Position numbers and translations under genes: made by a program. Source: Candidatus Thorarchaeota archaeon (GTDB lineage: Archaea; Asgardarchaeota; Lokiarchaeia; Sigyniarchaeales; SOKP01). Taken from it: a DNA stretch of 64,000 nucleotides. The DNA lies in contig JBHLRA010000001.1 of the NCBI GenBank assembly GCA_048883045.1, positions 19,841 to 83,840 on the forward strand, in the 5' to 3' direction. Shown here in pieces: positions 6,574-32,317 of the stretch (position 1 is its first letter; every line of letters begins with the position of its first letter). The notes below the pieces were generated by a model that saw only the letters and a program-made list of their open reading frames with translations, did no database searches and was not told where the DNA came from.

Positions 6574-8166
6574 TCATCTTATTCCTGCTAAATATCTTTT
6601 TATTTTCAAAATATTTTCTTCTCTTTCTTTTTTCTTCTTCTCTGAATGAAATAGTTCGTGATCTGCATTTATAATCCTGTGTCTATCTGGAAGTTTTTCT
6701 AAATAATTCTCATCTGGCTTAGCCCTTTTCAAAACTATACTATGATGATACGTTATTATATGTTTGAAAAACTCAAAACATCCCGCCTTTGTACAAATCT
6801 CATGGAGGTCTGAATCCATCCAAGTCTGCTTATAATCTGTGTCCAAATATCTCCCCAAAATATCGTGTAATATTTTATTGGTAAAAAATAGCGTTGATAA
6901 TTTTCTGAAATTATGTCTGCTTTCGTTTGTGCGAATAAAAAAAGGTTTGTTCTGATTTTTCTTAAATTCCTCTACAATTATTGAATCCCAAGAATAAGTC
7001 TCAAAACTGCAATCATCTCCAAAAAACCCGAAACAATAAGGATTATATTCAAGAGATTTATCATATAGCATGTTCCAGAATTTGGAATAGTTTATATCTT
7101 CCCCTCTTCTCTTTCTAGGTTCATAGTCCCAAAATATATTTTCAGTTAATTCTTTTTTCAAAGTTTGCAGCATAGATTCTGAAATTTTATCACTTCTAGG
7201 TATAAGAAAAAAGAAATATATCCGACTTGGAAAGCTTGATTTTTCTAGAGCTGATTCCACTAATCTCTTAATCCCTTCTGGCCTTTTCTTAGAAGGAGTC
7301 AAAATTGCTATCTTCTTTTTCCTACTATCATCACTTCTTATTGTATTTCTGTGCCGTCTAGAGGCTTGAAAATGCTCAATAACAGCATTATCCTTATTTC
7401 TTACTATATCATATATTTGGCAATAAGATAAAGGCAAAGGCCTTATCATTATTTTATCTTTTAAAGATTTAACGCAATCTAGGAGCAGATTTTGATCAAT
7501 TGTTCTATTGTCCTCTAAACATTTCATCTTCCACATTTCCAGCAATCTAAAGGCTCCATCAGTGTAATTAAAATATATAGTGCCAGATAGTAACCGATCC
7601 ATGATGAAATTAACCCCAGGGAATAGCTCTTTGTCTCTATCTCGCATAGAATTAGGGAAGTAAGCTGCAAAATCTATATCTTTCATTTTTTCAAATAGCT
7701 TGGGTTGTTTTTTAACTATCGCATCTGCATCAACACAAACAACTGGTTTACCTGACATCTTTAAGACTCTTTCTATTAACACAGGCTTATATTGAGTATT
7801 CATAACCCACCCACCCAAATCCTCTATGCCTTCTATATAATAATCAAGTTTTAGAGTCTCTAAGGATTTTATAAGATTTTTAACTTCTTTCTCATATGGA
7901 GTGTCTATTGTGAAAAATGAGACCATAACAAATTTAGATTTAGGGTCTATCCCGGTGGTTAATATTTTGGGCTCTTTTCTTACCGAAGGCTTGGGAATTA
8001 AATTTTGATTAGGAGGAGGTTGGGCTGGTTGAGTAAAAACTTCTTTTCTTTGTTCTAATACCCTTTTTTTTACTCTCTTTAAAACTTCTCTTTGTTGAGG
8101 CCAAGAAAACTGGCTATAATTTTTAGGTAAATGTTTTTTTATTGTTTCAAATAGGTCATTATCCAT
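6574..8166 (-). CDS. two-domain nucleotide-sugar glycosyltransferase-like protein
   Basis: 530 aa; basic/Pro-rich N-terminus. GT-A-like domain with PVVCVDADAIV (DxD). Second Rossmann-like block KKKIAILTPSKKRPEGIKRLVES. Confidence 0.5.
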   Translation of the reverse strand: MDNDLFETIKKHLPKNYSQFSWPQQREVLKRVKKRVLEQRKEVFTQPAQPPPNQNLIPKPSVRKEPKILTTGIDPKSKFVMVSFFTIDTPYEKEVKNLIKSLETLKLDYYIEGIEDLGGWVMNTQYKPVLIERVLKMSGKPVVCVDADAIVKKQPKLFEKMKDIDFAAYFPNSMRDRDKELFPGVNFIMDRLLSGTIYFNYTDGAFRLLEMWKMKCLEDNRTIDQNLLLDCVKSLKDKIMIRPLPLSYCQIYDIVRNKDNAVIEHFQASRRHRNTIRSDDSRKKKIAILTPSKKRPEGIKRLVESALEKSSFPSRIYFFFLIPRSDKISESMLQTLKKELTENIFWDYEPRKRRGEDINYSKFWNMLYDKSLEYNPYCFGFFGDDCSFETYSWDSIIVEEFKKNQNKPFFIRTNESRHNFRKLSTLFFTNKILHDILGRYLDTDYKQTWMDSDLHEICTKAGCFEFFKHIITYHHSIVLKRAKPDENYLEKLPDRHRIINADHELFHSEKKKKEREENILKIKRYLAGIR

Positions 8167-8857
8167 CGATAGTATCCTTTTTCATAATCCACATTTGATT
8201 GTAAAATTTTTTATAATTTATATCTATTTTTCTTAAATTAAAACCAAATTTTTTTACAATTGACATCAATTTTTCTTTAGAATAAGTATTTACGTAAGCC
8301 CCTTTATTCTTTCCATCTCTATCATTCCAAGTAAATTTTTCCTTTTTGGGGGGTTTAAACCAGGTGACTATGGCTAATTCTTTGGTAGTTCTAAGTAAAT
8401 TTGCAAAATAATTATATCCATCATAAGGATGCTGATGTTCCAAAGTATGTCTAGTATATATTATATCAAATTCTTTATCCTGATGCCTGCTAGTTGCTGG
8501 ACACAAATCCCAAAAAGACCCAACGCTAAAACAAGAATTATAATTATTGAATTTCTTTCTAGCATATTTAACAAACTGCTCTGTTATTTCCCAGCCCTTA
8601 TAAATTATATGCCCCATCTCGTGAAGATATTGGAAACAATGTTCAAAATCATAACCGTTACCGAACCCTATTTCAAGAAAAAGTTTTTTGTTTTTATTGC
8701 CTACATAATCTCTTATAATATAATAGGCCTCTTCTCGACCATAAGCATAATTATGGGCTAAGAATTTACACCATTCTTCATAGGATATTTCATTCAGCCA
8801 AGGGGCTTTAAAATCGTGATTGAAAATATTAGAGTTTTTTATAGTTTCTATTTTCAT
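8159..8857 (-). CDS. class I SAM-dependent methyltransferase
   Basis: LFLEIGFGNGYDFE (motif I), FDIIYTRHTLEHQ (motif post-II/III). Confidence 0.7.
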   Translation of the reverse strand: MKIETIKNSNIFNHDFKAPWLNEISYEEWCKFLAHNYAYGREEAYYIIRDYVGNKNKKLFLEIGFGNGYDFEHCFQYLHEMGHIIYKGWEITEQFVKYARKKFNNYNSCFSVGSFWDLCPATSRHQDKEFDIIYTRHTLEHQHPYDGYNYFANLLRTTKELAIVTWFKPPKKEKFTWNDRDGKNKGAYVNTYSKEKLMSIVKKFGFNLRKIDINYKKFYNQMWIMKKDTIDG

Positions 8858-8992
8858 AAATCTTTAGTTCCATCTTTCGTATGAAATTTTATTATCATTT
8901 GAATAACAAACTATTCAATTTGTTTCTGCATTTATTAATGCGTTTGTTTTCTCTTATCTTTTTAATTTTTTTTATTTTATATATCAATTTTT

Positions 8993-9163
8993 TCATTTTT
9001 TAATAACCTTTTCTATAATTCTTTGCAAAATCGGTTTTCCTTTTTCCTTAAGAGCTCTTTTTTTGGCATTTCCGCCAGCATGAAAAACCCAAGAATCAGG
9101 CTTATAGAATGTTAATTTTCTATAATTTTTTTTAGACAGCACTTTTCCTGATTTGTTAGACAT
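8993..9163 (-). CDS. small basic hypothetical protein (56 aa)
   Basis: Hand-translated MSNKSGKVLSKKNYRKLTFYKPDSW...; below the ORF-track cutoff; weak SD. Confidence 0.3.
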   Translation of the reverse strand: MSNKSGKVLSKKNYRKLTFYKPDSWVFHAGGNAKKRALKEKGKPILQRIIEKVIKK

Positions 9164-9170
9164 ATTATAT

Positions 9171-9374
9171 TCACTTCTTTCTATTTTTTTTAGTTTTAGA
9201 TATTATACCCAATAATTTTTCTCTTTCTCCACTAGGGGCTTGATATCCAGATGCTATTATTCCAAGACCTTGACGAGCTGCTTTTGTTTTTCCATTTGGC
9301 CCAGTATAACATTTTCCTTCGTCTCCCCATTTCCATCCATTTTTACCTTTTATTGTGCATCTCTTAATAGGCAA
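9171..9374 (-). CDS. hypothetical protein
   Basis: 67 aa, KGKNGWKWGDEGKCY motif; co-oriented. Confidence 0.5.
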   Translation of the reverse strand: MPIKRCTIKGKNGWKWGDEGKCYTGPNGKTKAARQGLGIIASGYQAPSGEREKLLGIISKTKKNRKK

Positions 9375-9380
9375 CTTATA

Positions 9381-9758
9381 TCATCCTTTCTTGGTATATA
9401 CATGGAATAAGTCTTTTATTCTATTTTCTATAGAACTTAAAGATTTATTTATTGATTTTAGATTAGAATTGATTTCTTTAAATTGAACAATAAATGGATT
9501 TTCAATAGTTAATTTCTCTTTCTCTGCCTTATCCCCGTCCACTATTTGAATAGTTTTTTTATTTTGACCACAATCGGCAATCCAAGGATATACACATTTA
9601 GGGCAACTACCTTCCCATTCCTCTAAAAATCCATCCTTGTTCATGGTGATTTTGTTTTCTGGCTTACCTATGAGGAAAACGTGAAACATTTTATATCCAC
9701 ATTTTTTACAAATAGTAAAAGTATTGTTAAGATCCAAAATTGTTGGCCCCATTGGCAT
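9381..9758 (-). CDS. zinc-ribbon hypothetical protein
   Basis: 125 aa; CKKCG ... CPKC pairs; coiled-coil tail. Confidence 0.5.
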   Translation of the reverse strand: MPMGPTILDLNNTFTICKKCGYKMFHVFLIGKPENKITMNKDGFLEEWEGSCPKCVYPWIADCGQNKKTIQIVDGDKAEKEKLTIENPFIVQFKEINSNLKSINKSLSSIENRIKDLFHVYTKKG

Positions 9759-9759
9759 C

Positions 9760-9930
9760 TTATTTCCCCCTTTTTTGGTTCAATCCTTCTCTTAAAGCTT
9801 TTCTATCTATAATCCTTATATCTTCAACCTTTATATTTCTTTCATTGGTTTCAGGATTTATTTCAGTTTTTATCCTTTTATAGGATCGATTATTGCCTAT
9901 CATTCTTTTAAACCCGTTTTTGTTTTTCAT
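9760..9930 (-). CDS. small basic hypothetical protein (56 aa)
   Basis: Hand-translated MKNKNGFKRMIGNNRSYKRI...; GGAGGA upstream; fills the gap between neighbouring ORFs. Confidence 0.35.
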   Translation of the reverse strand: MKNKNGFKRMIGNNRSYKRIKTEINPETNERNIKVEDIRIIDRKALREGLNQKRGK

Positions 9931-9949
9931 ATGTTCCTTTCATCCTCCA

Positions 9950-10174
9950 TTACATTTTAAATAGATTTTCATATAAATTCCAGCTTTTTAACAAAATATC
10001 ATCAAAACCAAGAATAAATTCTTCTCTAATTTCTAAATATTTATTTCTTAAATCTTTCAGATTAACTATTAAATCCTTTCTCTTTTTTTTAAGTTTTTCT
10101 ATTTCTAATTTGCACCTTTTGCTAATGATATCCATATTTTCTCTTTCTACTGATTGTCTTATGTTGATTTCCAT
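9950..10174 (-). CDS. coiled-coil hypothetical protein
   Basis: 74-aa ORF, heptad-rich. Confidence 0.45.
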   Translation of the reverse strand: MEINIRQSVERENMDIISKRCKLEIEKLKKKRKDLIVNLKDLRNKYLEIREEFILGFDDILLKSWNLYENLFKM

Positions 10175-10310
10175 AATGATACTAATTCTTTTTCTAAATT
10201 TATTTCTTTACTCATTTCCTGTCTCCTCATTATTTTTCTTTTTAAATCAACTAAACCAGTTATAATAAAATTATTTACAATCCCATTTTTAAAAATTGTT
10301 TTTTAAATTT

Positions 10311-10370
10311 ACTGACTCATCCTATCTGATCTCATCCGATCATATCTGATTGCATCTTACAATGATATAT
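10311..10370 (-). promoter_or_regulatory. intergenic element D, copy 1: ACTGACTCATCCTATCT followed by about 10-bp phased degenerate repeats
   Basis: Shares its 5' 17-18 nt with 11188-11250. Units cctatctgat/ctcatccgat/catatctgat/tgcatcttac. Lies upstream of the - strand gene starting at 10174. Confidence 0.5.
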
Positions 10371-10393
10371 TTATATTTCAACCTTTATCTCTT

Positions 10394-11023
10394 TTACATC
10401 CATACCATTCCTATTTCAAATGTTCCATATTGATATCCTTGTCTTAGATTGGGCCTCATATCCCCAATACCATTTTCAAATCCAGCTATTTTCAATAGAT
10501 TAAGAATTTGTTCTTTTGATATAAGTCTTTCATTGTAACAAATTTCAATTTCAAAACTCCAATCATAAAACATAGGTCTAATTCTGGTATCTATCGTTTT
10601 TACTATAACTTCAGGCCTAATATCAATATAATATAACTTATCTTTCGAATAAGGTCTAAATTTTAATTTAACCATTTCGGAATCATCATTGCTAAAAAAT
10701 CGAATAGCTCTCCTTAGAGTAGTCTTATTCAATCCATTGATTTCGGTGGCGGCGTTAATCATTGATTTATAGATCATTCTTATAGGAATTCCAATTTCTC
10801 CATTAGGTAATCTATAAATACAACTTTCTGCAATTTGATCAATATTGTACTCTTTTCTCCCTCCGGTTTTAGGGACTTTCATTTTTTTATCTAAAAGTTC
10901 TTTAACTGTTTCTTCTGGGAACTTATGCATACATAAAGGGGTAATCCCCACTATCTCAACTTTCATGCTTTTTAATGATAAAGCTGGTATTTCTAAAACT
11001 TTGGTTTCTTTTTTGCTTGACAT
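10394..11023 (-). CDS. conserved-looking hypothetical protein
   Basis: Start moved to ATG 11023 (SD AAAGGAGATAAAA). ITPLCMHKF near the N-terminus and a Gly-rich C-terminus GFENGIGDMRPNLRQGYQYGTFEI. Family not recognised. Confidence 0.5.
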   Translation of the reverse strand: MSSKKETKVLEIPALSLKSMKVEIVGITPLCMHKFPEETVKELLDKKMKVPKTGGRKEYNIDQIAESCIYRLPNGEIGIPIRMIYKSMINAATEINGLNKTTLRRAIRFFSNDDSEMVKLKFRPYSKDKLYYIDIRPEVIVKTIDTRIRPMFYDWSFEIEICYNERLISKEQILNLLKIAGFENGIGDMRPNLRQGYQYGTFEIGMVWM

Positions 11024-11187
11024 TTTTATCTCCTTTCTGAGATTAAAGTTTGTCATAGTGCAATTAAGTTAATAACATCCTTTCTAATATAGAAAGGAGA
11101 CGGAAGGATATGACTAGCAAATCATATCCTTCCTTACCAATCATTAAATTAGAGATGGAAAACCTACTTTCTTAACCATACAATTTG

Positions 11188-11250
11188 TACTGACTTATCC
11201 TATCTCATCATATCTCATCAAATCGTATCTTATCATATCATATCTCATAT
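11188..11250 (-). promoter_or_regulatory. intergenic element D, copy 2: ACTGACTTATCCTATCT plus five 10-bp tandem units
   Basis: tatctcatca tatctcatca aatcgtatct tatcatatca tatctcatat (11201-11250); upstream of gene 10394-11023. Confidence 0.5.
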
Positions 11251-11383
11251 AATTTTTTTATATTCAATAACCATGCCAATTCTTTTAACAATGACATTTC
11301 TCTTTACCTTTATAAAAGTTAATTTTGTGCTTCTATAATATTAACGTCTACTATCGTGATTTTTTGTTATCTTATTCCTTTTC

Positions 11384-11659
11384 TTATTTAGATATATTAG
11401 CCATAGCCATTAATTTATCTATATCGCATTTTTTGGCCAATAAAAACATTTTATTGAAAAATTTCTTTGCTTTTTCAAAAATCAAATCAGCTTTAATTAC
11501 ACATCAAGCATATTCTTTTTTATCATCAATAGTTAAATTATTAAGTTTAGCGAATGCTTTTATTCTATTTCCTCCGTTGCTGACAAATTCTTTTAGGAAA
11601 TCTAATAAATATTGCTCTTCTTTTATTTTTTCTAAATACATTCTATCTAAATTATCCAT
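11384..11659 (-). pseudogene. TerS N-terminal (HTH)-like paralog interrupted by an in-frame TGA
   Basis: SD GGAGGG + ATG 11659. MDNLDRMYLEKIKEEQYLLDFLKEFVSNGGNRIKAFAKL..DDKKEYA-TGA(11504-11506)-CVIKADLIFEKAKKFF... Aligns with TerS FLEEYIKNGGNAIQAYGIV..DQKEYLRAGVKAAQMM on both sides of the stop. Confidence 0.4.
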
Positions 11660-11719
11660 TATTTTCCCTCCTTGTATATTATATATAACGTATTTAAACT
11701 CATTTTTATGATCAAATCT

Positions 11720-12784
11720 TTAAAGTTCTTTGAAATTGATATCATATTTCTCAGATAATTGATTAAGGGTCAACACTCTTCCAGTTTTAATATCGCTAAA
11801 ATTTTCAAAATCCAGTTCTCCTTTCTTATAGGCTGCATATCGGTTAGGCCGCAAAACTTCTTTTTTAAACAGCTCATTTTGACGTTCAAACCAATCTCTA
11901 TATTTTTCAGATGCCTCAGTTTTTCCGTATCTAGTTTCATATTTTACTTTGCCAGTCCTAGTCACTCTTTTACTAATTATTTCTTTATAAGGCCTTTCTA
12001 TTCCTTCTAGATCATATTTAGTCAGCGCCATAAGAAGACATCGGCAAAGCCAGTGGGATGGCGGTGTTATTCCAAAAGCCACAATATCTTTATGCACTTG
12101 ACCATCTAGATGCCCACAAAGCAAACAAGTTCGATGATCTAGCGTCGCTATCCATCTATAACCTATAATAAAATCCTCATAACTTTTATACACTTCTTGA
12201 AGAGATTTATTGCTTACATCCATTATTGAAGTTCTAGCGATGCGAGTTGATTCAATGATAGAAAGATTGGTGGCTGTTTTTATATTCTTGGCCATAGTTT
12301 GCATGCTGTGGCCTTGAATAAGGCCATTCAATAGTGCTCTTTTAGAATTCTTAAAATGATTTCTAAAACTTTTATTGAATAGATCAGATAAAAGAAAATC
12401 TCCTATTTTAGGTTTAAGCATTCTTTTAAGAGCTTTGGCTGGTAGTCCTAAATTAGGAACCGATCTGGATATTAAATCTAGGCCCTCTTGTTTCAGAAGA
12501 GCATTGGCAACATTGTAATATTCTAGTTTAGCTACATCACCCAAAGAATCTAATATTTTTCCATCTATCTCTTCGTGAACTTGTTTTAATATATCAATAG
12601 TTTGGGCTAGAACATATTTATAATGGCTCCGGCTTATCTCATTTATCCAAGGTTTGGCCTCTAACTTTTTAAGGATTTCAATTTGTGATCTTCTGAGGCT
12701 GTTGATGATTTCTTGGTCTAAACTATTTCCAAATTCTTCCAGAAAATGCCGATTTTTAAGAATAAAATCCATTAAAGAAGACAT
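11720..12784 (-). CDS. head morphogenesis protein, SPP1 gp7 / Mu F family
   Basis: WIATLDHRTCLLCGHLDGQV...PPSHWLCRC is the Phage_Mu_F signature; located downstream of the portal. Confidence 0.85.
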   Translation of the reverse strand: MSSLMDFILKNRHFLEEFGNSLDQEIINSLRRSQIEILKKLEAKPWINEISRSHYKYVLAQTIDILKQVHEEIDGKILDSLGDVAKLEYYNVANALLKQEGLDLISRSVPNLGLPAKALKRMLKPKIGDFLLSDLFNKSFRNHFKNSKRALLNGLIQGHSMQTMAKNIKTATNLSIIESTRIARTSIMDVSNKSLQEVYKSYEDFIIGYRWIATLDHRTCLLCGHLDGQVHKDIVAFGITPPSHWLCRCLLMALTKYDLEGIERPYKEIISKRVTRTGKVKYETRYGKTEASEKYRDWFERQNELFKKEVLRPNRYAAYKKGELDFENFSDIKTGRVLTLNQLSEKYDINFKEL

Positions 12785-13578
12785 ATATTATCTGTTCTCC
12801 ATTGCATTATACGTTTTAAAGCTATTCGATAATATTCCTTGACTACTTCTATCCCAATATATTTTCTATTAGCCTTTAAAGCCATTGCACAAGTCGTACC
12901 AGATCCACACATAGGATCTAAAATTATATCTTTAGGATTAGACCAAGAAATAATGTGATCATATGCTAATTGTTCAGGAAATGGAGCTGGATGACATTTG
13001 CCTTTTTGTTTCTGTGGTGATTGCTCCCATATATTAAATCTTTGAGATAATTCATTTATAATCATTTTTTTATTTACAGGTTTTATACTTCCATCTGCAT
13101 TTCGTATAGTGCCAGAAACAGTTTTACCTCCATGTTTTGTTTTTCTATCTTTTATTGGATTGAATATTTTTATATTTCCTTTGGATAAAATAAACATATA
13201 ATCGAACACAGGACAATATCTTTTTTTTAATGCACCAACAGCTGAAAATCCGCCTTTATTCCATATCATAGTATCATGTAAATTGAAACCTATTTCTTTA
13301 AAATATAATGCTTGTTTAAAACTTGTTCCTGTTTTAGAACCCTTAATGATTGCGTCTCCAACAATCCAAACTACAACCCCTCCAATTTTAGTAATACGAA
13401 ATAATTCTTGCGCTATTGGCTCAAATCTAAACTTATCTAAATTATTTTTATAAGTTCTTAAATTATCATAAGGTGGAGATGTGACAGTTAAATCAATACT
13501 ATTATCTGGAATATATTTCATCATATCCAAACAATCGCCTAATATTATTCTGTTTATAAAATCTTCTGGATAGTCCAT
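12772..13578 (-). CDS. DNA methyltransferase (beta-class N4-C or N6-A)
   Basis: LTVTSPPYDNLRTY (motif IV, SPPY) is N-terminal to ILDPMCGSGTTCAMA (motif I). Confidence 0.85.
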   Translation of the reverse strand: MDYPEDFINRIILGDCLDMMKYIPDNSIDLTVTSPPYDNLRTYKNNLDKFRFEPIAQELFRITKIGGVVVWIVGDAIIKGSKTGTSFKQALYFKEIGFNLHDTMIWNKGGFSAVGALKKRYCPVFDYMFILSKGNIKIFNPIKDRKTKHGGKTVSGTIRNADGSIKPVNKKMIINELSQRFNIWEQSPQKQKGKCHPAPFPEQLAYDHIISWSNPKDIILDPMCGSGTTCAMALKANRKYIGIEVVKEYYRIALKRIMQWRTDNICLL

Positions 13579-13611
13579 ATTATAATAACGTATTTAAACC
13601 ACAAATTTTGA

Positions 13612-15324
13612 TTATTCTTCTTCCTCAACAAATTCTTCTTCCTTTTTATTTTTCTCCTTTTTTATCAAAGCTCTTACCTCTGCTTCTTTTTGAGCATTAA
13701 GCTCTATATCTTTGGCCTCTTCTTCGGCAATTTTTGCTTCCTCTTCCTCTTTATTGAAATTACGTGGCAATATTTCTCCTCTGCTCAAAATTTCCCATAA
13801 AGTGTCTCGGCTTAAATCCTTAGTCATTCTCATATCCAACAGAGCTTTGATAAGGTCAGATTCTATTTCTTTGATATCAAAATCAAGATTATAGCTGACT
13901 CTAATATCTTCATCTTTTCTATAGTCCAATTTCTCCCAAAGTGCAGCAAATTCCCAGCATTGCTGCTCAGAATTTGAAAAATTAATAGCTCTAGTTTGGA
14001 TATCAGATAAGGAATCTAATCTATCCAGCTTTTTAGCTTCAGCAGTTTGTCTGGCGCTGGTGCTAGGCCTTACTTGTTTCATGGCTAGATCGAATATTTC
14101 AGATATAATCATCTTTTCAGATTCCCTTAAAGCCTCTATAGAACTGCCAGTAAACTCCATCCATTTACCATCAGCTTTATCATTCTCTGTGATAATAGCC
14201 ATTTCTTCAGAAATAATAAGCTTTTCTTTATCTGTAAAACCTTTTAAAAATAGAAAAGGAAAAGCCGACATAACTTCTGCATGTTGGCGATCAGAATGTT
14301 TGTTATAAAATTCCAAAGCTAATTCAACTATATCAAAGATTGCTGATTTACCTACACCCCAATCTATTTCTTCACTATAGAATGGGACTAATGGGATTGT
14401 GTTTATAGATACAATCTTTTCTCCTAACTTTATTATTTCTTTTTTGTTACCAGGCAATTCTTTATAAGTATATATGGCTTGTTTATGGGGCCAAATAACT
14501 CGATATTGGACTTGATATTTAACTTCTAGAAAGGGGATATTTTCTATGATTTTCTTTTCCCTTATAATTACATAACTGAGTTCTTTATTCCCATCAATCT
14601 TTTCTCTCCAACCCCAATCCAATATATTTCTGGGATCTATTGGACAAAAATAAGGCCTTAGATTGAGGGCTTGTTCATCGGCTTGAGTTACTTTGGCCAA
14701 TTCTTTTCTTGCTTCATCTGAATCTTTGGCATTTTTTACAAAAGGATTTTCAGGATATTCAGTCAAAACATAATATATCCCTAATACTTGAGCCATTTTG
14801 GTTATAAAACTAAAAAATTTATTTGCGGATTTTCCCATCCTATCTACATTGCCTTTATATTCTTCCAGCAAAGGAGGCAGAATTCTTTCTGGTTCTTTTC
14901 TCCAAATATGTGATTGGAAAGTAGTGATGACTTGGGCAGGTTTGTTATAATATACTGCTTCCTTTTTTCTTTGATCATATTTTTTTTGAGGTTCATTGGC
15001 CTTTTTTATAAGATATACATCATCATCAGCATTTTGAACATTCCCTCCCCCTATAAAACAATCATAAAGCCTATCCCAATGAGGGTCAAGGATGTCATAA
15101 TTTGCATGCTGTTTGTCTAAATCTATTTCATCCATTTTATTATCAGGGGCAGTTGGACTTTGCTGATGAGATATTCTTTGCCTCAACACTTTTTCCTCAT
15201 AAGAAACTGTTACTTCATTTTTAATATTTGTTTCTGGATTTATGATTGTCTTTTGGCCTTTCTTAGCTCTTGGAGTATATGTTTTTTTCGTCAATTTAAT
15301 TTCCTCCTTATAGAAAATTATCAA
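13612..15324 (-). CDS. portal protein
   Basis: 570 aa between TerL and the MuF-like gene; acidic C-terminus. The likely true start is TTG 15294, preceded by AAGGAGG (the ATG at 15324 has no SD). Confidence 0.7.
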   Translation of the reverse strand: MIIFYKEEIKLTKKTYTPRAKKGQKTIINPETNIKNEVTVSYEEKVLRQRISHQQSPTAPDNKMDEIDLDKQHANYDILDPHWDRLYDCFIGGGNVQNADDDVYLIKKANEPQKKYDQRKKEAVYYNKPAQVITTFQSHIWRKEPERILPPLLEEYKGNVDRMGKSANKFFSFITKMAQVLGIYYVLTEYPENPFVKNAKDSDEARKELAKVTQADEQALNLRPYFCPIDPRNILDWGWREKIDGNKELSYVIIREKKIIENIPFLEVKYQVQYRVIWPHKQAIYTYKELPGNKKEIIKLGEKIVSINTIPLVPFYSEEIDWGVGKSAIFDIVELALEFYNKHSDRQHAEVMSAFPFLFLKGFTDKEKLIISEEMAIITENDKADGKWMEFTGSSIEALRESEKMIISEIFDLAMKQVRPSTSARQTAEAKKLDRLDSLSDIQTRAINFSNSEQQCWEFAALWEKLDYRKDEDIRVSYNLDFDIKEIESDLIKALLDMRMTKDLSRDTLWEILSRGEILPRNFNKEEEEAKIAEEEAKDIELNAQKEAEVRALIKKEKNKKEEEFVEEEE

Positions 15325-15331
15325 ATTTTAT

Positions 15332-17740
15332 CTAATATATCAAAATATCAGAAGTATCTATAACATCAGCGCTCTTTCTTAATTTCCTGAACATGCAAGC
15401 ATAGCGTACTTCGTCGCAATTCGAAACAATTATATTTCCTTGAACTGCGAATAGATGGCTCCCTTTTGTAGTTAAACAATAAACATCTGACTTTCCTATA
15501 CAATCAATTGATTTTATTTTTTTTCCTATTTTCTCCGCTGAGTTTTGCTCCGCAATCTCTTGAACAAGTTTTAGTCTTTCCATATTTGATTGTTTCGAAT
15601 TCTTTGCCACATATTGAGCATATTCTTGTTTCATGATCAAGTTTATTACTTCTTCTATATTTTGATTTGCAAACATTGGAGCAAAATTTTTGGAATGGAA
15701 ACCCTTCAAATTCATTCTTACATTGTAAACAATTTTTAATTTTTCTTGCAAGTATTTTATCTTTGCAATTTGATTGATATTGGCGTTTATGCCATTCTTT
15801 GCCTTCATCGCTCTTATGCCATTCTGCTGCCTTAATCCTAGCTTTGCTGCTTGCATTGAAAAAAGCTGAATTATCTTCTCTAAGATTAATATGTAATTTA
15901 GAATGTTGGCTTTGTGACATTGCTTCCAAATTTTCGATATTATTATTTGATCTATCAAAATCTTTGTGGTGGATGTGAAATCCATTTGGTATATTCCCAT
16001 TATGAAATTTCCAAACTGTTCTATGTAAAATATTCCCATTTTTTTTTCTAAAATATCTTCCTTGTAAGTAATATCTAATTCCATTAAATTCTTGTATTGT
16101 TTCACTAATGATAATGGTTTGCATTCATCCTCTCCTTTTAAAGAATAACAATAATCTCCTATTTTTAAATATTTAGCTTGTATTAGATTATAATTTATAT
16201 CTAAAAATTTATGATCTAATGTAGATTCAACTTTTGTTCCATCCTCAAACGATATGCGTATTAAATCTTGATTTCTTCTAGTCATTCTGCAATTATAATA
16301 ATCTGTATAAAAATTTCCAACTGTTATTATTTTCCCTTCAGTTCCGACTAAATTTTTTATGGGCTTAAATCCCTCTAAAGTTTTAACCAATGTGTTAGGG
16401 GATAAACATATATGATCTTCCTGATGAGGGGCTATATCTTCTAAATTTTTAGCATCTCTTTGCAGATAGGGTATAGTCCTTTTAAAATCATAACACCATT
16501 CCATTACCAGCAATCCTGGCCCAAATTCTTTATTTCCTATCAATCTATTACGGACTTGAGCCCATCCTGGAACTCTGCTTTTATCAGATTCAACAAACAA
16601 ATCTCCACCCATTTGCTTATGGATACTTTCTCCTCCTCTTTCCTCAAATATCTGATTATCTGCTGGTCCCTTTCTTATATTAAGACTGCCCCATTGTTTT
16701 TCTCTTTCTCTTATTTCTTTTCCTATCTGTTCATTAGACATGTAAAGACCGGATATTTTCCCGTTATCTCTTTTACATCCATACCATTCTGCAAATCTTA
16801 TCAAGGTTCCCCTTGGGTAGTATAAGCCATTTGGAGCTACATTCCCATCGCTTTCACACCACCAGCCAACTGAAAAAGGACTTGCACTGCCCCAATCAAA
16901 ACTTCTAAAACAAAACCAATCTGAAGGAGGCACAAAACATTGAGAGATTGGGATAACATTTTTTATTTCATTCCAAGCATCAGCAAAAAACGAACCAATC
17001 TTTACATCCCAAGAACCAAATATCCAAGATTTCTTAAGTTCTTCATCATTTAAACCAAACAAAGTCTTACGATAAGCTTTACCTTGATTATCCATAAATG
17101 GTATATTTTCCAACATATTACCAAAGATTGCTATTCTCTTTTCTCCCTGATTATTCTCAATAGGAACTCCCCAGCGCCCAACTGGATCAACAAAATATCC
17201 TTTGACCTCTGCTCTTCCTACACCCCAAGTATTGGCAGTTGATCTTATTCTGGGAAAGACTGATATTGGAGAAGATGCAAAGTTACAGCTCTTCATGAGC
17301 TCATAAGCCTCTAGATTAGGCCATTCACAAAGCTCATCCCAACCTATCCAGGGGAGAGCATGGCCATGAAAATTTCCATAATCTTTTTCATTATCCATAT
17401 AGGCAAATTTTAAAGTTTCTCCGTCTGGAAAATACCAAGTGCCTTCACTTTTGTTATATTCAGCTTTAAGAAATATTTTTTTATATAGCGTTTGGCTTTC
17501 AAATACTAAATCTCGGAGTTGGGGAAAAGTTCGCCTAAATAAAACACCTCTCCAAATAGGTCCATAACCTTTTCCTACATCTTGTAAAAAATCAACAAGT
17601 AAACTAGCACTTTTGCCAGCCTTTCTTGTTCCGAAATATAATGCCTCTTTAAATGGACAAGATAAAAAAAGAGATTGGGAGCCTGGATTAGGGGTCCACG
17701 CTAATGTATTTTTTTTATTATTTTGTTTTAAGATGTCCAT
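15332..17740 (-). CDS. terL: terminase large subunit precursor containing an intein
   Basis: Walker A FGTRKAGKSAS, Walker B IGWDEL. Nuclease motif EDHI|...|CDEVRYACM is split by a 330-codon insert. Confidence 0.9.
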   Translation of the reverse strand: MDILKQNNKKNTLAWTPNPGSQSLFLSCPFKEALYFGTRKAGKSASLLVDFLQDVGKGYGPIWRGVLFRRTFPQLRDLVFESQTLYKKIFLKAEYNKSEGTWYFPDGETLKFAYMDNEKDYGNFHGHALPWIGWDELCEWPNLEAYELMKSCNFASSPISVFPRIRSTANTWGVGRAEVKGYFVDPVGRWGVPIENNQGEKRIAIFGNMLENIPFMDNQGKAYRKTLFGLNDEELKKSWIFGSWDVKIGSFFADAWNEIKNVIPISQCFVPPSDWFCFRSFDWGSASPFSVGWWCESDGNVAPNGLYYPRGTLIRFAEWYGCKRDNGKISGLYMSNEQIGKEIREREKQWGSLNIRKGPADNQIFEERGGESIHKQMGGDLFVESDKSRVPGWAQVRNRLIGNKEFGPGLLVMEWCYDFKRTIPYLQRDAKNLEDIAPHQEDHICLSPNTLVKTLEGFKPIKNLVGTEGKIITVGNFYTDYYNCRMTRRNQDLIRISFEDGTKVESTLDHKFLDINYNLIQAKYLKIGDYCYSLKGEDECKPLSLVKQYKNLMELDITYKEDILEKKMGIFYIEQFGNFIMGIYQMDFTSTTKILIDQIIISKIWKQCHKANILNYILILEKIIQLFSMQAAKLGLRQQNGIRAMKAKNGINANINQIAKIKYLQEKLKIVYNVRMNLKGFHSKNFAPMFANQNIEEVINLIMKQEYAQYVAKNSKQSNMERLKLVQEIAEQNSAEKIGKKIKSIDCIGKSDVYCLTTKGSHLFAVQGNIIVSNCDEVRYACMFRKLRKSADVIDTSDILIY
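15419..16408 (-). mobile_element. intein in the TerL nuclease motif (codons 445-774)
   Basis: Block A CLSPNTLVKTLEG (Cys1 at 16406-16408), block B TLDHKFL, blocks F/G VYCLTTKGSHLFAVQGNIIVSN, +1 Cys at 15416-15418. Confidence 0.8.
15504..16124 (-). CDS. HNH homing endonuclease nested in the intein in a different reading frame
   Basis: 206 aa; HIHHKDFDRSNNNIENLEAMSQSQHSKLH; zinc ribbons CLQCKNEF..FCSNVC and CSICGKEF..CSRDC. Own SD AAAGGAGAGG 4 nt before the ATG. Frame offset 2 relative to TerL. Confidence 0.8.
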   Translation of the reverse strand: MQTIIISETIQEFNGIRYYLQGRYFRKKNGNILHRTVWKFHNGNIPNGFHIHHKDFDRSNNNIENLEAMSQSQHSKLHINLREDNSAFFNASSKARIKAAEWHKSDEGKEWHKRQYQSNCKDKILARKIKNCLQCKNEFEGFPFQKFCSNVCKSKYRRSNKLDHETRICSICGKEFETIKYGKTKTCSRDCGAKLSGENRKKNKIN

Positions 17741-17767
17741 TTTTCTTTTTCCGCCAATTTTTTTGCT

Positions 17768-18292
17768 TTAGACATCTATTGATCTCATTTCATCAGTTAT
17801 TTCTCTGACTTGGTCTAATTTTTTTAGCCAATTATCTTCGTCAGCCATTATGCCTGGTACTATTAAAACATTGTTTTGTTTTGTAACATTTATATCAATT
17901 CCAGGTTTAGGGAATAAATTTCTAAGCTTGCATAGAGTTTCTAGATAATTATGGCGAGCATTGAAATCGGGAAGCTGTATGCCTGATTTATCAAATTTGT
18001 AGGCCGCCAATCCTTCAAAAATCAATTCTGCTATTTTTTTTAGCGTAAGCCCTTGAGCTTCTAACTCTTCATCAATGGTTGGTTTTATTTTTTTCATCAT
18101 CTGAGCAGCTTTGACGCCAGCTCGAAGATATTCTTTTTGATCTCGTAAATCTAGTCCTTTAACTATGCCATAAGCTTGTATTGCATTGCCGCCATTTTTT
18201 ATATATTCTTCTAAAAATTTAAGTTCAATGGGCTTCAAACTCTTTCTATTTCTCTTAGATTCATCTAAAACAACAATATCTTTATTGTCCAT
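17768..18292 (-). CDS. terS: terminase small subunit
   Basis: LKPIELKFLEEYIKNGGNAIQAYGIV is a Terminase_2-like HTH; directly upstream of terL. Confidence 0.75.
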   Translation of the reverse strand: MDNKDIVVLDESKRNRKSLKPIELKFLEEYIKNGGNAIQAYGIVKGLDLRDQKEYLRAGVKAAQMMKKIKPTIDEELEAQGLTLKKIAELIFEGLAAYKFDKSGIQLPDFNARHNYLETLCKLRNLFPKPGIDINVTKQNNVLIVPGIMADEDNWLKKLDQVREITDEMRSIDV

Positions 18293-18378
18293 GATATCTC
18301 CTAATTCCTGTAAGCAAATTTCTTCTCCCTATATATATTATATTTATTTTTCGAAAAAAATAACGAAATTTCGCAAAT

Positions 18379-18417
18379 AGTATAAAAATTATACTGCTGA
18401 AGTATAAAAATTATACT
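18379..18417. promoter_or_regulatory. two identical 17-bp inverted-repeat operators AGTATAAAAATTATACT, centres 22 bp apart
   Basis: 18379-18395 and 18401-18417, in the divergent region between terS (-) and the + strand early genes. The bottom strand of each reads TATAAT. Confidence 0.6.
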
Positions 18418-18490
18418 ATTTTTTTTACAAGAAAAATCAATATTTAGCAAAAACAATAAGTTATAAAATTGTTAAATTGGGTATAAAATA

Positions 18491-18531
18491 AGCAATAGTA
18501 TATAATAGAACTTAACAAAGGAGACAATAAA
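18491..18531 (+). promoter_or_regulatory. element A variant (AATAGTATATAATAGAACTTAACAAAGGAG)
   Basis: Shares the TATAAT-like core, CTTAACAA and SD with element A copies; precedes ATG 18532. Confidence 0.4.
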
Positions 18532-18669
18532 ATGAACACAAGAGATAGAAGAAATCGCAAAGCGATAAGAAAAGTTTTATATAGTCTCAGATCTGAAGGT
18601 TATAAAAATAGTTACAATGGCGATATTTATAATAGCTTATCTAAAAAATTAAAGACTTGGTTCAAATAA
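18532..18669 (+). CDS. small basic hypothetical protein (45 aa)
   Basis: Hand-translated MNTRDRRNRKAIRKVLYSLRSEGYKNSY...; AAGGAG SD. Confidence 0.45.
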   Translation: MNTRDRRNRKAIRKVLYSLRSEGYKNSYNGDIYNSLSKKLKTWFK

Positions 18670-18675
18670 TAAAGA

Positions 18676-18738
18676 TTTTTTCAATAGTAACCGATAGTAT
18701 AAATAGAGGATAAAATAAGAATCTTAACAAGGGAGAGG
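18676..18738 (+). promoter_or_regulatory. element A copy (T-run, CGATAGTATAAATAGAGG, AAATAAGAATCTTAACAAGGGAG)
   Basis: Conserved promoter/leader block directly upstream of ATG 18745. Confidence 0.55.
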
Positions 18739-18744
18739 CACAAT

Positions 18745-18975
18745 ATGTTTAAACCAATAGCTTTAATTTATCCAGAGAAAGCAAAGAGGCCATTATTTAT
18801 AGGTTATTTCAAAAATGAGAAAGATGGCCTATATACGGTGCAATCTTCTTTTAGAACAGTGAAATCAGGATTATCTTCTCTTAAGGAAGTTTGTGCGCAA
18901 ATAGAATGGGAATTTGGAGATCATCCTGATTTTAAATGGATGCCGCTCTTTAATGCAAATAGTTTAATTATTTAA
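18745..18975 (+). CDS. hypothetical protein
   Basis: 76-aa ORF behind element A. Confidence 0.6.
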   Translation: MFKPIALIYPEKAKRPLFIGYFKNEKDGLYTVQSSFRTVKSGLSSLKEVCAQIEWEFGDHPDFKWMPLFNANSLII

Positions 18976-19294: not shown

Positions 19295-19346
19295 ATTGTT
19301 ATTTTTTAAAAAAATTTGAGTATAATATATATATGGGAGAAAAACT

Positions 19347-19598: not shown

Positions 19599-19988
19599 AT
19601 GAACTATTTTAAGCCAAAAAAAGGGAAAACATACGAGCTTATTTCTTCATCACTTTGCCAACATTTCAAGCCTTATAACCTAATTAAACCTGCAATAGGG
19701 TTTATAGAGGATGGAAAAGTTAAGCAAATAATCCCATATAAGGAGGCCCCTAGAGCAGTCAAGGATAAGGTTAAAGAGATCAGAAAAAAATGGCTGACTT
19801 ATCGTAATTTATTTGTAAGGCCTTTTGTTTTCCAATTTAGAAAAATTTATTTAAGGCTGGATGGCGTACAAAAGAAAGGAGAAAGTATTTATTATATGTG
19901 GACAATACTCTATAATTGCGATCCATTCCATAGGAATAGTACAACTATTACCGTTAGATTCGAAGATTTTTTTATAAATAGCCGATAA
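19599..19988 (+). CDS. hypothetical protein
   Basis: 129-aa ORF; its last codons overlap the upstream half of an element A copy. Confidence 0.6.
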   Translation: MNYFKPKKGKTYELISSSLCQHFKPYNLIKPAIGFIEDGKVKQIIPYKEAPRAVKDKVKEIRKKWLTYRNLFVRPFVFQFRKIYLRLDGVQKKGESIYYMWTILYNCDPFHRNSTTITVRFEDFFINSR

Positions 19989-20028
19989 TATAAATAGAGG
20001 GAAAAATAAGAAACCTTAACAAGGAGGG
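19967..20028 (+). promoter_or_regulatory. element A copy (TTTTTTTATAAATAGCCGATAATATAAATAGAGGGAAAAATAAGAAACCTTAACAAGGAGG)
   Basis: Directly upstream of ATG 20034. Confidence 0.55.
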
Positions 20029-20033
20029 GAATT

Positions 20034-20228
20034 ATGACAAGAATCGTTACTATTTATAGATCAGATTACAATGGCCACAAAGATAGCGAGGGCACAGAAT
20101 ATTTTAATTATCTCCTTGGTGCTCTTGGAGTCCCTGATAAAGAACAAGAGAATATACACGAAGTGACTTTGACGGTCAAAGATTTCAAAACTGAAGACCT
20201 ACAATGCCATAGTGACTGGAATAGCTGA
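20034..20228 (+). CDS. hypothetical protein
   Basis: 64-aa ORF behind element A. Confidence 0.55.
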   Translation: MTRIVTIYRSDYNGHKDSEGTEYFNYLLGALGVPDKEQENIHEVTLTVKDFKTEDLQCHSDWNS

Positions 20229-22459: not shown

Positions 22460-22954
22460 ATGACTAAAGAACAAGAAAATATTATCCAAATATTAGTTAA
22501 ATCTTTTTTTTTAAGATTTGGTACTATTGTAGATTTAGACATTCTAAAAAGTGAAGCTTTTTTTGTATACTCTTGGCTTTTAGATAAAAACAATAATTAT
22601 TATTTAGGTGAAGATAATGAAGGCATTAAATTTTATGTCACTAAAAGATTAATTGATTTGGTTATAAAAAAATTTAGAGAGCTTAAAAAAAATACAATTA
22701 TATCTGAAAAGCTGGAAGATTATAGCATTAATAGTACTCTCATTAATCCAGATCATGAATTAGATTTCAGAATTGGGCTTAATAAATTATCCCCTAATGC
22801 CAAAATTTTGATAGATTTAATATTTAATGAAAAATCAGATATAGATAAATTTAATATCCAAGGCGTCATAAGGGCATCCAAAAGAGCCGGAATGAAAAGA
22901 ACTGCCTGCCTAAAAGCCGTTAAAGAAATACAAGCTTTTCTAAGGAGTCTATAA
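22460..22954 (+). CDS. hypothetical protein, possible sigma-like/HTH regulator
   Basis: 164 aa; LSPNAKILIDLIF resembles sigma region 4; weak. Confidence 0.3.
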   Translation: MTKEQENIIQILVKSFFLRFGTIVDLDILKSEAFFVYSWLLDKNNNYYLGEDNEGIKFYVTKRLIDLVIKKFRELKKNTIISEKLEDYSINSTLINPDHELDFRIGLNKLSPNAKILIDLIFNEKSDIDKFNIQGVIRASKRAGMKRTACLKAVKEIQAFLRSL

Positions 22955-30576: not shown

Positions 30577-30936
30577 ATGACGGTATATGATCCAAATGGA
30601 ATTCCTATACTTGGGAAAGAGGATGATGTAAAGATTAAGATAGAAGAATTGAGCAGAAATTTGATGATAGCTAGAGGATTAATTCATCAGCTTCAAGAGC
30701 AGGTGGAGCTTCTGAAGTCAAGCAATACAAATATTTTATGCTTTTTATTCTCTCTTATGAAAAAAACAGACAATAATCGCTTTAGAGTTCCGATTAAAAA
30801 ACTTGAATCTTTAAGGTCTGAATTTTTGAGCCAAAAGATAATTCTTAAAACTTATCAAGATAAGGCTAAAAATGTAGTTATATATCGAGAAGATGTTAAG
30901 CCGGAAAAGGATAATGAAAGTGAAGCCAAAAAATAA
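30577..30936 (+). CDS. coiled-coil hypothetical protein
   Basis: Start at ATG 30577 after AAAAGGAGA. Confidence 0.5.
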   Translation: MTVYDPNGIPILGKEDDVKIKIEELSRNLMIARGLIHQLQEQVELLKSSNTNILCFLFSLMKKTDNNRFRVPIKKLESLRSEFLSQKIILKTYQDKAKNVVIYREDVKPEKDNESEAKK

Positions 30937-31450
30937 CAATAATGCGTTGGTAGAAAATAATATAGGATTGGTATATCATACTATAAAAAGATGTTTTAAT
31001 TTTAAAATTAAAGATTTGTCTAGCCTTAAGTTGACTAAAGATGATCTTTATCAACAGGGCAAATTAGGCCTTATTGAGGCCAGTCAAAGATATGATGAAA
31101 GGCGAGGTAAATTTAGCACTTTTGCTTGTCGATTGATTAGAGATTATATTTATAAGATGATTAAGGATGGATATAAAAATTCTTTTGTCCCTTTGCTAAT
31201 AGATATTCCTGATTACAACTCTATAGAAAAAGCAGAAATGATGATAGATTTTGAGCGATGTTGCAAAAAATATTTGAAGCAAAAAGATATTAATATAGTC
31301 TGTGATCATATCTTTGAGGGCTTGACTTTCAAAGAAATATTTTTGAAAAACGATATGGAAAATGAAATGCAAGCTTTTAGAATTTATAATGAAAGTATTC
31401 AAAAAATTAAAAGACAGATTTGCATAGATTTACATAGAAATAATTCATAA
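30914..31450 (+). CDS. sigma-70 family RNA polymerase sigma factor
   Basis: Region 2: LYQQGKLGLIEASQRYDERRGKFSTFACRLIRDYI; region 4-like EGLTFKEIF...IYNESIQKIKRQ. The start could be 30893 or 30914. Confidence 0.7.
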   Translation: MKVKPKNNNNALVENNIGLVYHTIKRCFNFKIKDLSSLKLTKDDLYQQGKLGLIEASQRYDERRGKFSTFACRLIRDYIYKMIKDGYKNSFVPLLIDIPDYNSIEKAEMMIDFERCCKKYLKQKDINIVCDHIFEGLTFKEIFLKNDMENEMQAFRIYNESIQKIKRQICIDLHRNNS

Positions 31451-31677: not shown

Positions 31678-31698
31678 ATTCTTTAAATTTTCCCGAAG

Positions 31699-31765
31699 TT
31701 TTTTTTATAAATAGTCGATAATATAAATAGAGGGGGAAATAAAAGGAATCTTGAAAAAGGAGGTA
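31699..31765 (+). promoter_or_regulatory. element A copy (TTTTTTTTATAAATAGTCGATAATATAAATAGAGGGGGAAATAAAAGGAATCTTGAAAAAGGAGG)
   Basis: Directly upstream of ATG 31772. Confidence 0.55.
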
Positions 31766-31771
31766 AATAAA

Positions 31772-32270: not shown

Positions 32271-32317
32271 TCGTTATTTTTTTGTATTTTTAGGTATAAT
32301 ATATATAAGAGGAAAAA
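32271..32317 (+). promoter_or_regulatory. element B copy 1: TCGTTATTTTTTTGTATTTTTAGGTATAATATATATAAGAGGAAAAA
   Basis: Contains a consensus TATAAT (32295-32300); about 35 nt upstream of the scaffold gene; near-identical to 34407-34455. Confidence 0.6.

Follow-up and report, generated by a model that had tools for sequence, protein, structure and literature searches.

The class III promoter of bacteriophage T7 is 23 bp long, and the leader of T7 gene 10 is a standard leader; promoters of the T7 type have a long invariant block that ends in ATA, a G-rich start, an A/U-rich unstructured leader, and a strong Shine–Dalgarno (SD) sequence. In the Bacillus phage SPO1, transcription follows a cascade in which the host sigmaA is succeeded by gp28 for the middle genes and gp34 for the late genes (PMC13401047). 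Cluster K mycobacteriophages carry the start-associated sequence (SAS), a 13-bp ribosome-binding site (RBS) element (GGGATAGGAGCCC) located 3-7 bp upstream of the starts of non-structural genes (PMC3203893). Here, an intergenic repeat termed element A was analyzed in a stretch of 64,000 nucleotides (the window; positions 19,841 to 83,840 of contig JBHLRA010000001.1, assembly GCA_048883045.1), which is, judged from its gene content, a low-GC (~31%) tailed-phage genome. Element A is very likely a promoter fused to a translation leader. What is new is a phage promoter class with a sigma28-type -10 element fused to a standard leader and RBS, found in an uncharacterised phage lineage.

The original prediction had reported four blocks of a shared promoter-plus-leader sequence in this DNA, together with a shorter fifth variant. 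All four blocks were recovered at their positions, each with the 17-mer CGATARTATAAATAGAG, which has exactly 4 perfect occurrences in the window (at 18692, 19983, 31716, and, on the minus strand, 60598); when up to 3 mismatches were allowed, 5 matches were found where chance would give 1.03. A profile built from the 4 copies re-finds all of them at E = 1e-14 to 3e-19, and its next-best match has E = 1.1. The count of at least 5 copies could not be upheld, because only four are full and 18491-18531 (profile E = 57) is a different promoter-like site that shares with element A only the RBS-proximal 16 nt (GAACTTAACAAAGGAG) and an AATAG-NN-(T/G)ATAAT piece. The full copies are ~78 nt each (all coordinates of the element include the start codon), are intergenic without exception, and are oriented with the downstream gene. 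As had been proposed, the conserved block ends shortly before a start codon, the measured gap being 5-6 nt (ATG 18745, ATG 20034, ATG 31772, and GTG 60549 on the minus strand).

Copy 1 (18670-18747, plus strand) is the most divergent and carries a -35-like TAAAG (18670-18674), a 17-nt spacer, and ACC-GATAGT as its -10 sequence (18690-18698). Its predicted transcription start is A18705, from which a leader spanning 18705-18744, with the SD AGGGAG at 18730-18735, would reach the ATG at 18745 of a 76-aa open reading frame (ORF). Copy 2 (19961-20036, plus strand), to which the original prediction was attached, has CGAAG at 19961-19965, a 17-nt spacer, GCCGATAAT at 19981-19989, a predicted start at A19996, the SD AAGGAGG at 20021-20027, and an ATG at 20034; it heads a series of small ORFs followed by helicase, ORF 22460, primase, replication initiator, NUDIX, sigma factor, and glutaredoxin-like (Grx-like) genes. 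Directly downstream of the sigma and Grx-like genes lies copy 3 (31694-31774, plus strand), in which CGAAG (31694-31698), the spacer, and GTCGATAAT (31714-31722) are followed by a predicted start at A31729, the SD AAGGAGG at 31757-31763, and the ATG at 31772 of a 33-aa hydrophobic peptide. Copy 4 is on the minus strand (60620-60547; CGAAG 60620-60616, an A-rich 17-nt spacer, GCCGATAAT 60600-60592), with a predicted start at A60585 and the SD AGGAG (60560-60556) before the GTG at 60549 of a pyrimidine-dimer glycosylase (denV-like) gene. The genes served are those of 4 non-structural units, comprising the helicase/primase/sigma module, the denV-like gene, and small ORFs. No terminator was found upstream of any copy, and the copies would therefore act as operon heads or boosters in co-directional arrays. 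The T-run of the element was also considered as a terminator tail and rejected as such, being the promoter spacer, in place of which copy 4 has an A-run.

The anatomy of element A was derived from all copies aligned in register, 4 from the window and 8 from relatives, the latter being metagenomic phage fragments obtained by protein look-ups and pattern scans (L006/L015, L008, L012, L013, L014, L016, and L022). At its 5' end stands a -35-like block, (C/T)(G/A)AAG, with CGAAG in the majority of copies, TAAAG in copy 1, and TGAAG in a single diverged copy; written out further it reads CGAAG(T/A)TT, with AAG invariant and TAAAG in copy 1 only. The spacing AAG-N17-CGATA is kept in 9 of 10 measurable copies (the exception adjoins assembly Ns), and the first 7-9 nt of the spacer are A/T and otherwise free, T-rich in copies 1-3 and A-rich in copy 4. 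Next come an invariant 24-nt block, AAATAGCC-GATAAT-ATAAATAGAG (also given as the invariant AAATAGCCGATAATATAAATAGAG block), a purine run GnAm of constant total length, and the 3' part of the leader, AAATAAG-RAAYCTTRAM-AAGGAGG, which ends 5-9 nt before the start codon. Two conserved blocks separated by a spacer that is fixed in length and free in sequence are the classical mark of a two-block promoter for a sigma factor with sigma4 and sigma2 domains. The coordinates proposed for the blocks stood, with the amendment that the conserved unit starts ~6 nt further upstream, at CGAAG (TAAAG in copy 1), 17 nt before CGATA, and that the quoted consensus does not fit copy 1 (block at 18676), which has AGTAACCGATAGTATAAATAGAG. 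Likewise, it had rightly been noted that a TTGACA-type -35 is missing, but a conserved -35-like CGAAG does exist. Upstream of copy 2, a 129-aa ORF (19599-19988) reads through the promoter half of the element and has as its stop codon the TAA of the -10 octamer GCCGATAA (GCCGA-TAA); either its C-terminus is encoded by the promoter or the end of this ORF is fortuitous.

The leader would be 33-43 nt long and is unstructured and A-/purine-rich; it includes AAATAAGAAACCTTAAC and has a strong SD of 5-7 nt. Conservation through the 5'-untranslated region, as claimed at the outset, can be seen in the alignment of all copies. A shared leader acting as a regulator or RNA-binding site had been suggested as well, and of this the conserved leader stood, but a conserved or stable RNA fold did not emerge. 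The consensus fold has only a 4-bp CCUU/AAGG hairpin (-1.8 kcal/mol), single leaders fold no better than shuffled sequences (z-scores -1.3 to +0.8), and the leader gave no Rfam matches at the gathering threshold. A structured cis-regulatory leader RNA (riboswitch, attenuator, or Rfam family) was rejected on these grounds, and the leader may be a linear protein-binding site, for example for a translational regulator. The module at its 3' end (CCTTAA.A.GGAG) is found by itself at the starts of two further genes (18511 and 57277).

A second intergenic repeat, element B, was found by repeat analysis. It reads T(C/T)GTTA-T6...-TATAAT-ATATATAG, i.e. T(C/T)GTTA...TATAATATATATAG, lacks a conserved leader, lies ~14 to ~360 nt from the start codon, and is conserved in L006, L008, L013, and L014. 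On the minus strand, the copy at 18366-18330 (TCGTTA 18366-18361, TATAAT 18342-18337, then ATATATAGGGAG) heads the packaging operon, composed of a 174-aa ORF, the large terminase gene with its intein, and the portal gene. Those on the plus strand are at 19296-19346 (TTGTTA 19296-19301, TATAAT 19321-19326, then ATATATATGGGAG and the ATG at 19347 of an 80-aa ORF), at 32271-32319 (TCGTTA 32271-32276, TATAAT 32295-32300), upstream of a scaffold-like gene (32346-33302), and at 34407-34455 (TCGTTA 34407-34412, TATAAT 34431-34436), upstream of the major head protein gene (34806-35813). A base-by-base alignment of the two elements holds from the -35 block through to the start region, and they have the common core (T/G)ATAATATA(A/T)ATAG. 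When the window was searched for (T/G)ATAATATA(A/T)ATA with no more than 1 mismatch, only the 4 A and 4 B sites had a -35 block. G at -12 always occurs with GCC at -15 to -13 and CGAAG at -35 (ACC and TAAAG in copy 1), T at -12 always occurs with T(C/T)GTTA, and the zero-mismatch core sites of the relatives obey the same rule. In the B copy at 19321, the SD GGGAG comes directly after ATATATAT, so that transcription should start ~7 nt past TATAAT. From the shared register we therefore infer that the -10 of element A is GATAAT and that transcription begins 7 nt beyond this hexamer, at the A of TAGAG (18705, 19996, 31729, and 60585 on the minus strand). The -10 originally put forward, TATAAA/TAATAT, is thus better replaced by GCC-GATAAT, which is sigma28-type and in register with the TATAAT of class B.

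The site that had been taken for a short variant of element A is part of a separate promoter-like site, PE (18477-18534, plus strand), which has TTGGGT at 18477-18482, an 18-nt spacer, TATAAT at 18501-18506, and, downstream, GAACTTAACAAAGGAG and the ATG at 18532 of a 45-aa ORF. It is conserved in the relatives as a unit of its own (TTGGGT-18-TATA(A/G)T), directly downstream of two 17-bp palindromes. In the window these are identical (AGTATAAAAATTATACT, 18379-18395 and 18401-18417) and are placed between the divergent element B (minus) and PE (plus); both are also conserved in L012 and L013, and they resemble operators for a repressor.

Six related metagenomic phages added 8 further copies of element A (7 distinct sequences). 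The flanking DNA of these relatives is 75-88% identical to the window, and identity between the sigma proteins is 58-65%. Almost every copy in the relatives has a base-perfect promoter half (L006, L008, L014, L016, and L022), and the orthologous copy 3 of L006 and L008 is base-perfect over the core. When three genomes were aligned around copy 3, conservation over 40 nt peaked at 31694-31733, where 92.5% of the columns are invariant (coding flanks, ~55-80%), and the core of element A forms the longest run without change. Element A is a real regulatory repeat under selection. The proposal of a promoter-plus-leader cassette is borne out by its intergenic and co-oriented placement, the two blocks with a fixed-length spacer, and the orthologous positions in relatives.

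Searches beyond this lineage gave little. Annotated phage records contained no megablast match to the window, the nearest annotated phage sigmas are ~37% identical in region 2 only (Clostridioides and Bacillus phages), and the nearest portals are ~25% identical (YuA-like Pseudomonas phages). Five exact matches to the core 17-mer in IMG/VR were all single and without flank similarity and were set aside as chance; a sigma-based locus search of IMG/VR found no relative. In a genome collection, 24 nt of the element core (AAATAACCGATAATATAAATAGAG) were matched in 3 Lachnospiraceae/Pseudobutyrivibrio metagenome-assembled genomes (MAGs) and in one metagenome contig. In L009 (2268-2295), L010, L011, and L017, AAATAACCGATAATATAAATAGAG is followed by a perfect hairpin and then by a 209-aa protein without annotation, and the Lachnospiraceae/Pseudobutyrivibrio contigs have TAAC 15 nt upstream of ACCGATAA. 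This single independent locus may be a chance match or a bacterial SigD-type promoter.

The consensus of sigma28 promoters is TAAAGTTT-n11-GCCGATAA (PMC2859248). The structure of the P. aeruginosa open complex places the octamer at -15 to -8; as in sigma70 promoters, A-11 is flipped, and an Arg that is conserved among group-3 sigmas contacts G-12 (PMC12784957). With the promoters of sigma28/FliA/SigD, element A shares an identical -10 octamer, including G at -12 and GC at -15/-14, and a purine 8 nt past the octamer, where sigma28 promoters start; an AAG(T/A)TT motif lies in its -35 region. The octamer GCCGATAA is exact (8/8) in copies 2 and 4 of the window (2 of 4) and in 7 of the relatives' 8 copies; imperfect octamers occur in copy 3 (GTCGATAA, 7/8), copy 1 (ACCGATAG, 6/8), and the diverged L016 copy (ACTGATAA, 6/8). 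To judge from these positions (G at -12, GCC at -15 to -13, and AAG at -35), the difference between A and B is that between sigma28-type and sigma70-type promoters, because both the G-12 contact and the register of the octamer are known from sigma28 promoters. Unlike sigma28 promoters, however, element A opens its -35 with CG instead of TA (copy 1 apart) and has a spacer of n12 in 9 of 10 measurable copies, so that the 11-nt spacer is not kept. It also has extra invariant flanks (AAATA upstream and TATAAATAGAG downstream of the octamer), continues into a conserved leader and RBS, and would control phage replication and repair genes. The geometry xGAAxx-N16-CGxxxx resembles, in addition, the layout of extracytoplasmic function (ECF)-type promoters.

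Two genes of the window encode sigma-like proteins. The product of 30914-31450 (plus strand) was correctly assigned to the sigma-70 family by the original prediction: it matches Pfam Sigma70_r2 at E = 9e-9 and also a PHROG sigma family, and a sigma4 domain is confidently modelled in its predicted structure (probability 0.99 to SigD4 and SigF sigma4). It has two domains, sigma2 and sigma4, and no sigma3, and its best full-length Foldseek matches are to WhiG/FliA and ECF sigmaH, which are weak at E = 0.03-0.3. Where sigma70 has W433/W434 and sigma28 has I/R, this protein has R/L. It is predicted to be a non-primary two-domain sigma, not a scored member of the sigma28 family, and may be what reads class A or class B. 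For ORF 22460-22954 (plus strand), the claim of a sigma-like protein could be kept in part. No direct Pfam, NCBIfam, or PDB match was obtained, and a direct profile comparison with the sigma family, before a bridging homologue was used, gave a probability of 0.6%. An exhaustive profile search linked the family of this ORF to the homologue P0018 (hhalign probability 95.7%, E = 9e-9, 121 columns), which itself bears Sigma70_r2 at E = 3e-10; this link points to a sigma origin of the ORF. The AlphaFold2 model has a predicted local distance difference test (pLDDT) score of 55, its top Foldseek matches are nearly all ECF sigmas at non-significant values (E >= 0.05), and the region 2.3 motif is degenerate. 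ORF 22460-22954 is thus regarded as a diverged, probably sigma-derived protein of ECF-like size with a sigma4-like C-terminus, and as a putative second sigma only.

Copies of both elements stand at places where related genomes differ in gene content. Where the window has the single copy 1, L016 (146-511) has the arrangement A-geneX(71 aa)-A, with the second A diverged. Behind its replication-initiator gene, L022 carries a copy of A that has no counterpart in the window; the L022 contig breaks inside this copy. A 2,136-bp segment with the scaffold-like gene (window 32317-34406) lies between two copies of B, is present in L008 and L014, and is absent in L006 (9624-9698), which has one B copy; the segment appears to be an indel produced by recombination between promoter repeats. 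The presence of copies at such junctions is an expected by-product of 50-80-nt repeats and no evidence against promoter function.

Taken together, element A is read here as an early/middle promoter-plus-leader cassette recognised by a non-primary, probably phage-encoded, sigma factor, a compound statement to which we give an even chance of holding as a whole. A non-primary sigma is favoured because of the class-defining positions (G-12, GCC, and AAG), and that one of the two phage sigma-like proteins directs host core polymerase to A is put forward with moderate confidence. RNA polymerase would start at the A of TAGAG, 7 nt after GATAAT, and the 33-43-nt leader would be built for efficient ribosome loading. 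The copies would head small ORFs, the replication module with both sigma-like genes, small membrane peptides, and the denV-like repair gene; A and B would be two phage-specific promoter classes on one -10/start core, with B, sigma70-like, heading the packaging and head genes. The first sigma would be made by read-through from the operator-controlled PE, followed by positive feedback via copy 2, such read-through being needed because both sigma genes are in the copy 2 operon and no terminators precede the copies. Equally coherent, by analogy, would be an SPO1-like cascade in which the host sigma reads PE, ORF 22460 reads A (middle), and the 30914 sigma reads B (late). Several points weigh against assigning A to a phage sigma. 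Start site and promoter activity are deduced from sequence, from only 4 copies in the window and 8 (7 distinct) in relatives, all of one narrow lineage, and part of their conservation may come from recent duplication or gene conversion. The likeness to sigma28 promoters is incomplete (-35 CGAAG, not TAAAG; spacer n12, not n11), the 30914-31450 product scores 29 bits against the FliA/WhiG model TIGR02479 (cut-off 189.6), and it has Leu at the position of the G-12-contacting Arg (Pa R80 / Ec sigma70 W434), its own Arg lying one position earlier. With both sigma-like genes inside the copy 2 operon, a sigma-dependent A requires bootstrapping by read-through, and a classical cascade would have the sigma encoded last in the replication module serve the late genes, the class of which is B and not A. 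Finally, the whole core from -12 to +1 is common to A and B, as would also be expected if the host primary sigma holoenzyme read both and factors particular to each class worked at the -35.

That holoenzyme might indeed read A through the GATAAT/TATAAAT -10, with CGAAG and AAATAGCC bound by a phage activator or sigma-appropriation factor of the T4 MotA/AsiA type, or with the host sigma tolerating the -35; the phage sigma(s) would then serve class B (late) or other targets. This is the main rival, which we consider rather unlikely. It accounts for a -10 position and downstream ATAWATAG that are the same in A and B and for the AATAG-NN-TATAAT of PE, so that a single -10-reading domain could serve all three, and it suits both the match of GATAAT to TATAAT (5/6, with 17-nt spacing) and the location of the clear sigma gene at the 3' end of the A-headed replication operon, right before the late genes, which carry B. 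The -35 CGAAGW, however, agrees with TTGACA in at most 2 of 6 positions and a TG extension is missing, so that A fails as a canonical primary-sigma promoter; canonical TTGACA/TATAAT sites are not enriched in the window, and a consensus scanner calls no A copy. G-12 and GCC at -15 to -13 (the exceptions being ACC in copy 1, GTC in copy 3, and AACT in the diverged L016 copy) are nearly invariant; one would not expect this of a primary-sigma promoter, and it is the signature of the sigma28 type. No MotA/AsiA-like protein was identified among the scanned ORFs, most of the small ones being without annotation. Reading by the host's own flagellar sigma (sigma28/FliA/SigD), which would tie early/middle expression to host motility, draws on that same signature: GCCGATAA is perfect in 2 of 4 window and 7 of 8 relatives' copies and is correctly placed relative to the predicted start, AAG(T/A)TT stands at -35, copy 1 has TAAAGATT, and, by a rough estimate of our own, an exact GCCGATAA would occur by chance in a 55-nt element at ~5e-4, or ~5e-3 allowing ~10 candidate motifs. 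Most copies nevertheless begin their -35 with CG, and in the aer promoter of E. coli, replacing T by C at position 1 of the -35 lowered activity ~10-fold (PMC2859248). The spacer is also one nucleotide above the consensus, and a phage with its own sigma genes has less need of a conditional host sigma. No phage promoter class is known to be read by a host flagellar sigma, and we hold this explanation to be improbable. Most improbable is that the repeats are primarily recombination or boundary sequences, or an RNA-level element (processing, translational operator), without promoter activity. The cassette indels bounded by element copies (L016, L022, and the 2,136-bp B-bounded indel), the several metagenomic contigs that break inside the element, and the RBS-proximal module alone at 18511 and 57277, reminiscent of the Cluster K sequences (PMC3203893), would suit it. 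The two-block layout, fixed-length spacer, strict orientation, and register shared with B, on the other hand, are promoter properties that a recombination site does not need, recombination is an expected by-product of any 70-nt repeat, and the leader has neither RNA structure nor an Rfam match.

The contig from which the window was taken was recognised through ORF 22460, the product of which is 100% identical to MFW9899708.1 on an 84.6-kb (84,609-bp) contig deposited within a Candidatus Thorarchaeota MAG. Because of its terminase, portal, tape measure, amidase endolysin, bacterial-type sigma, and strong SD sequences, this contig is probably a bacteriophage mis-binned into the MAG, and the analysis re-labels it as a bacteriophage genome. 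The window begins with a minus-strand block (1-18300), including the large terminase (with intein) and portal protein genes. A plus-strand block (18500-59100) opens with small ORFs, followed by the replication module (helicase, primase, replication initiator, and NUDIX), after which come the sigma-70-family and Grx-like genes and, in the distal part, the scaffold-like gene and those for the major head protein, endolysin, minor tail protein, and tape measure protein. A second minus-strand block (59265-64000) includes the denV-like glycosylase gene. Convergent terminators at 59132-59158 and 59222-59250 close the plus-strand block and the second minus-strand block; they are two strong GC-rich hairpins with T-tails and are likely bidirectional. 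The large terminase gene (15332-17740, minus strand) has an intein (Pfam Intein_splicing) with an embedded HNH-like segment. Some 1 kb of sequence here (window 15417-16412) is missing in L013 (5035-5040), and the intein is therefore polymorphic in the lineage. Paralogous HNH/NUMOD homing-endonuclease genes or segments are found at 6056-6500, 15891-15985, and 61483-61843 of the window, one of them within the terminase intein, and in L018 at 4963-5553, 11537-12433, and 15273-15785. In the intergenic region 11056-11325, direct repeats of ~10-nt periodicity (ATCTCATCAtAT-like) occur at 11186-11253, and again at 10318-10345; they are iteron-like and may mark a replication origin. Scans for tRNAs and known RNA families found none.

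That phages have promoter classes of their own, read by their own sigmas, is well established, and the principle is not new. The window offers a natural pair of classes with a shared -10/start core that differ only at the positions separating sigma28-type from sigma70-type promoters, in a lineage that encodes a clear sigma and a degenerate one, and hence a compact system for how minimal sigmas partition promoters. The union of promoter, standardised unstructured leader, and RBS is a ready-made expression cassette with possible use in low-GC hosts, and there is direct evidence that such cassettes mark junctions of gene cassette gain and loss. A bolder joint statement, that A is a true sigma28-type class in a phage, read by the host flagellar sigma or by a converged minimal non-FliA phage sigma, and that the whole 78-nt unit is portable, with its copies recombining to shuffle cassettes, is in our view unlikely to hold in full. 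Were the host flagellar sigma the reader, early/middle phage expression would be gated by host motility; were the 78-nt module portable, recombination between copies would shuffle gene cassettes among related phages.

Set against the known systems, element A resembles several and coincides with none. The T4 late octamer TATAAATA is present in every full copy, but T4 late promoters (gp55/gp33/gp45) have no -35 element, whereas element A has a conserved -35-like block, and the phage sigma here has a sigma4 domain, unlike gp55; the T4-late reading was rejected on these two counts, and no homologues of gp55, gp33, or MotA were detected among the scanned window ORFs. The MotA box of T4 middle promoters, where a phage factor replaces -35 recognition, supplies the idea behind a reading of A by the host primary sigma. 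To the T7-type cassette, element A is alike in its invariant block leading to ATA, its G-rich start, its unstructured leader and strong SD, and in being portable; it differs in having a separate -35 block at a fixed distance. A promoter for a T7-like polymerase was rejected, since no single-subunit (T7-like) RNA polymerase gene was found among ~35 scanned window ORFs, the largest ones included, and sigma genes are present instead. SAS and the extended start-associated sequence (ESAS) are, like element A, asymmetric SD-containing repeats near start codons, in one orientation, confined to non-structural genes, and conserved across related phages in front of unrelated genes (PMC3203893). SAS is unrelated in sequence, however, and has no promoter, whereas the RBS module of element A is the 3' end of a 78-nt unit with a promoter as its 5' half, and 4 copies of A per 64 kb compare with ~15-20 in Cluster K phages (PMC3203893). 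In SPO1, as proposed here, small phage sigmas redirect the host core polymerase, and each temporal class has its own non-canonical consensus (PMC13401047). The sigma-like proteins of the window have no sequence relation to gp28 or gp34, and SPO1 promoters lack a common leader and RBS; in this phage, two sigma-like genes go together with two promoter classes of its own and with an operator-controlled site that is sigmaA-like.

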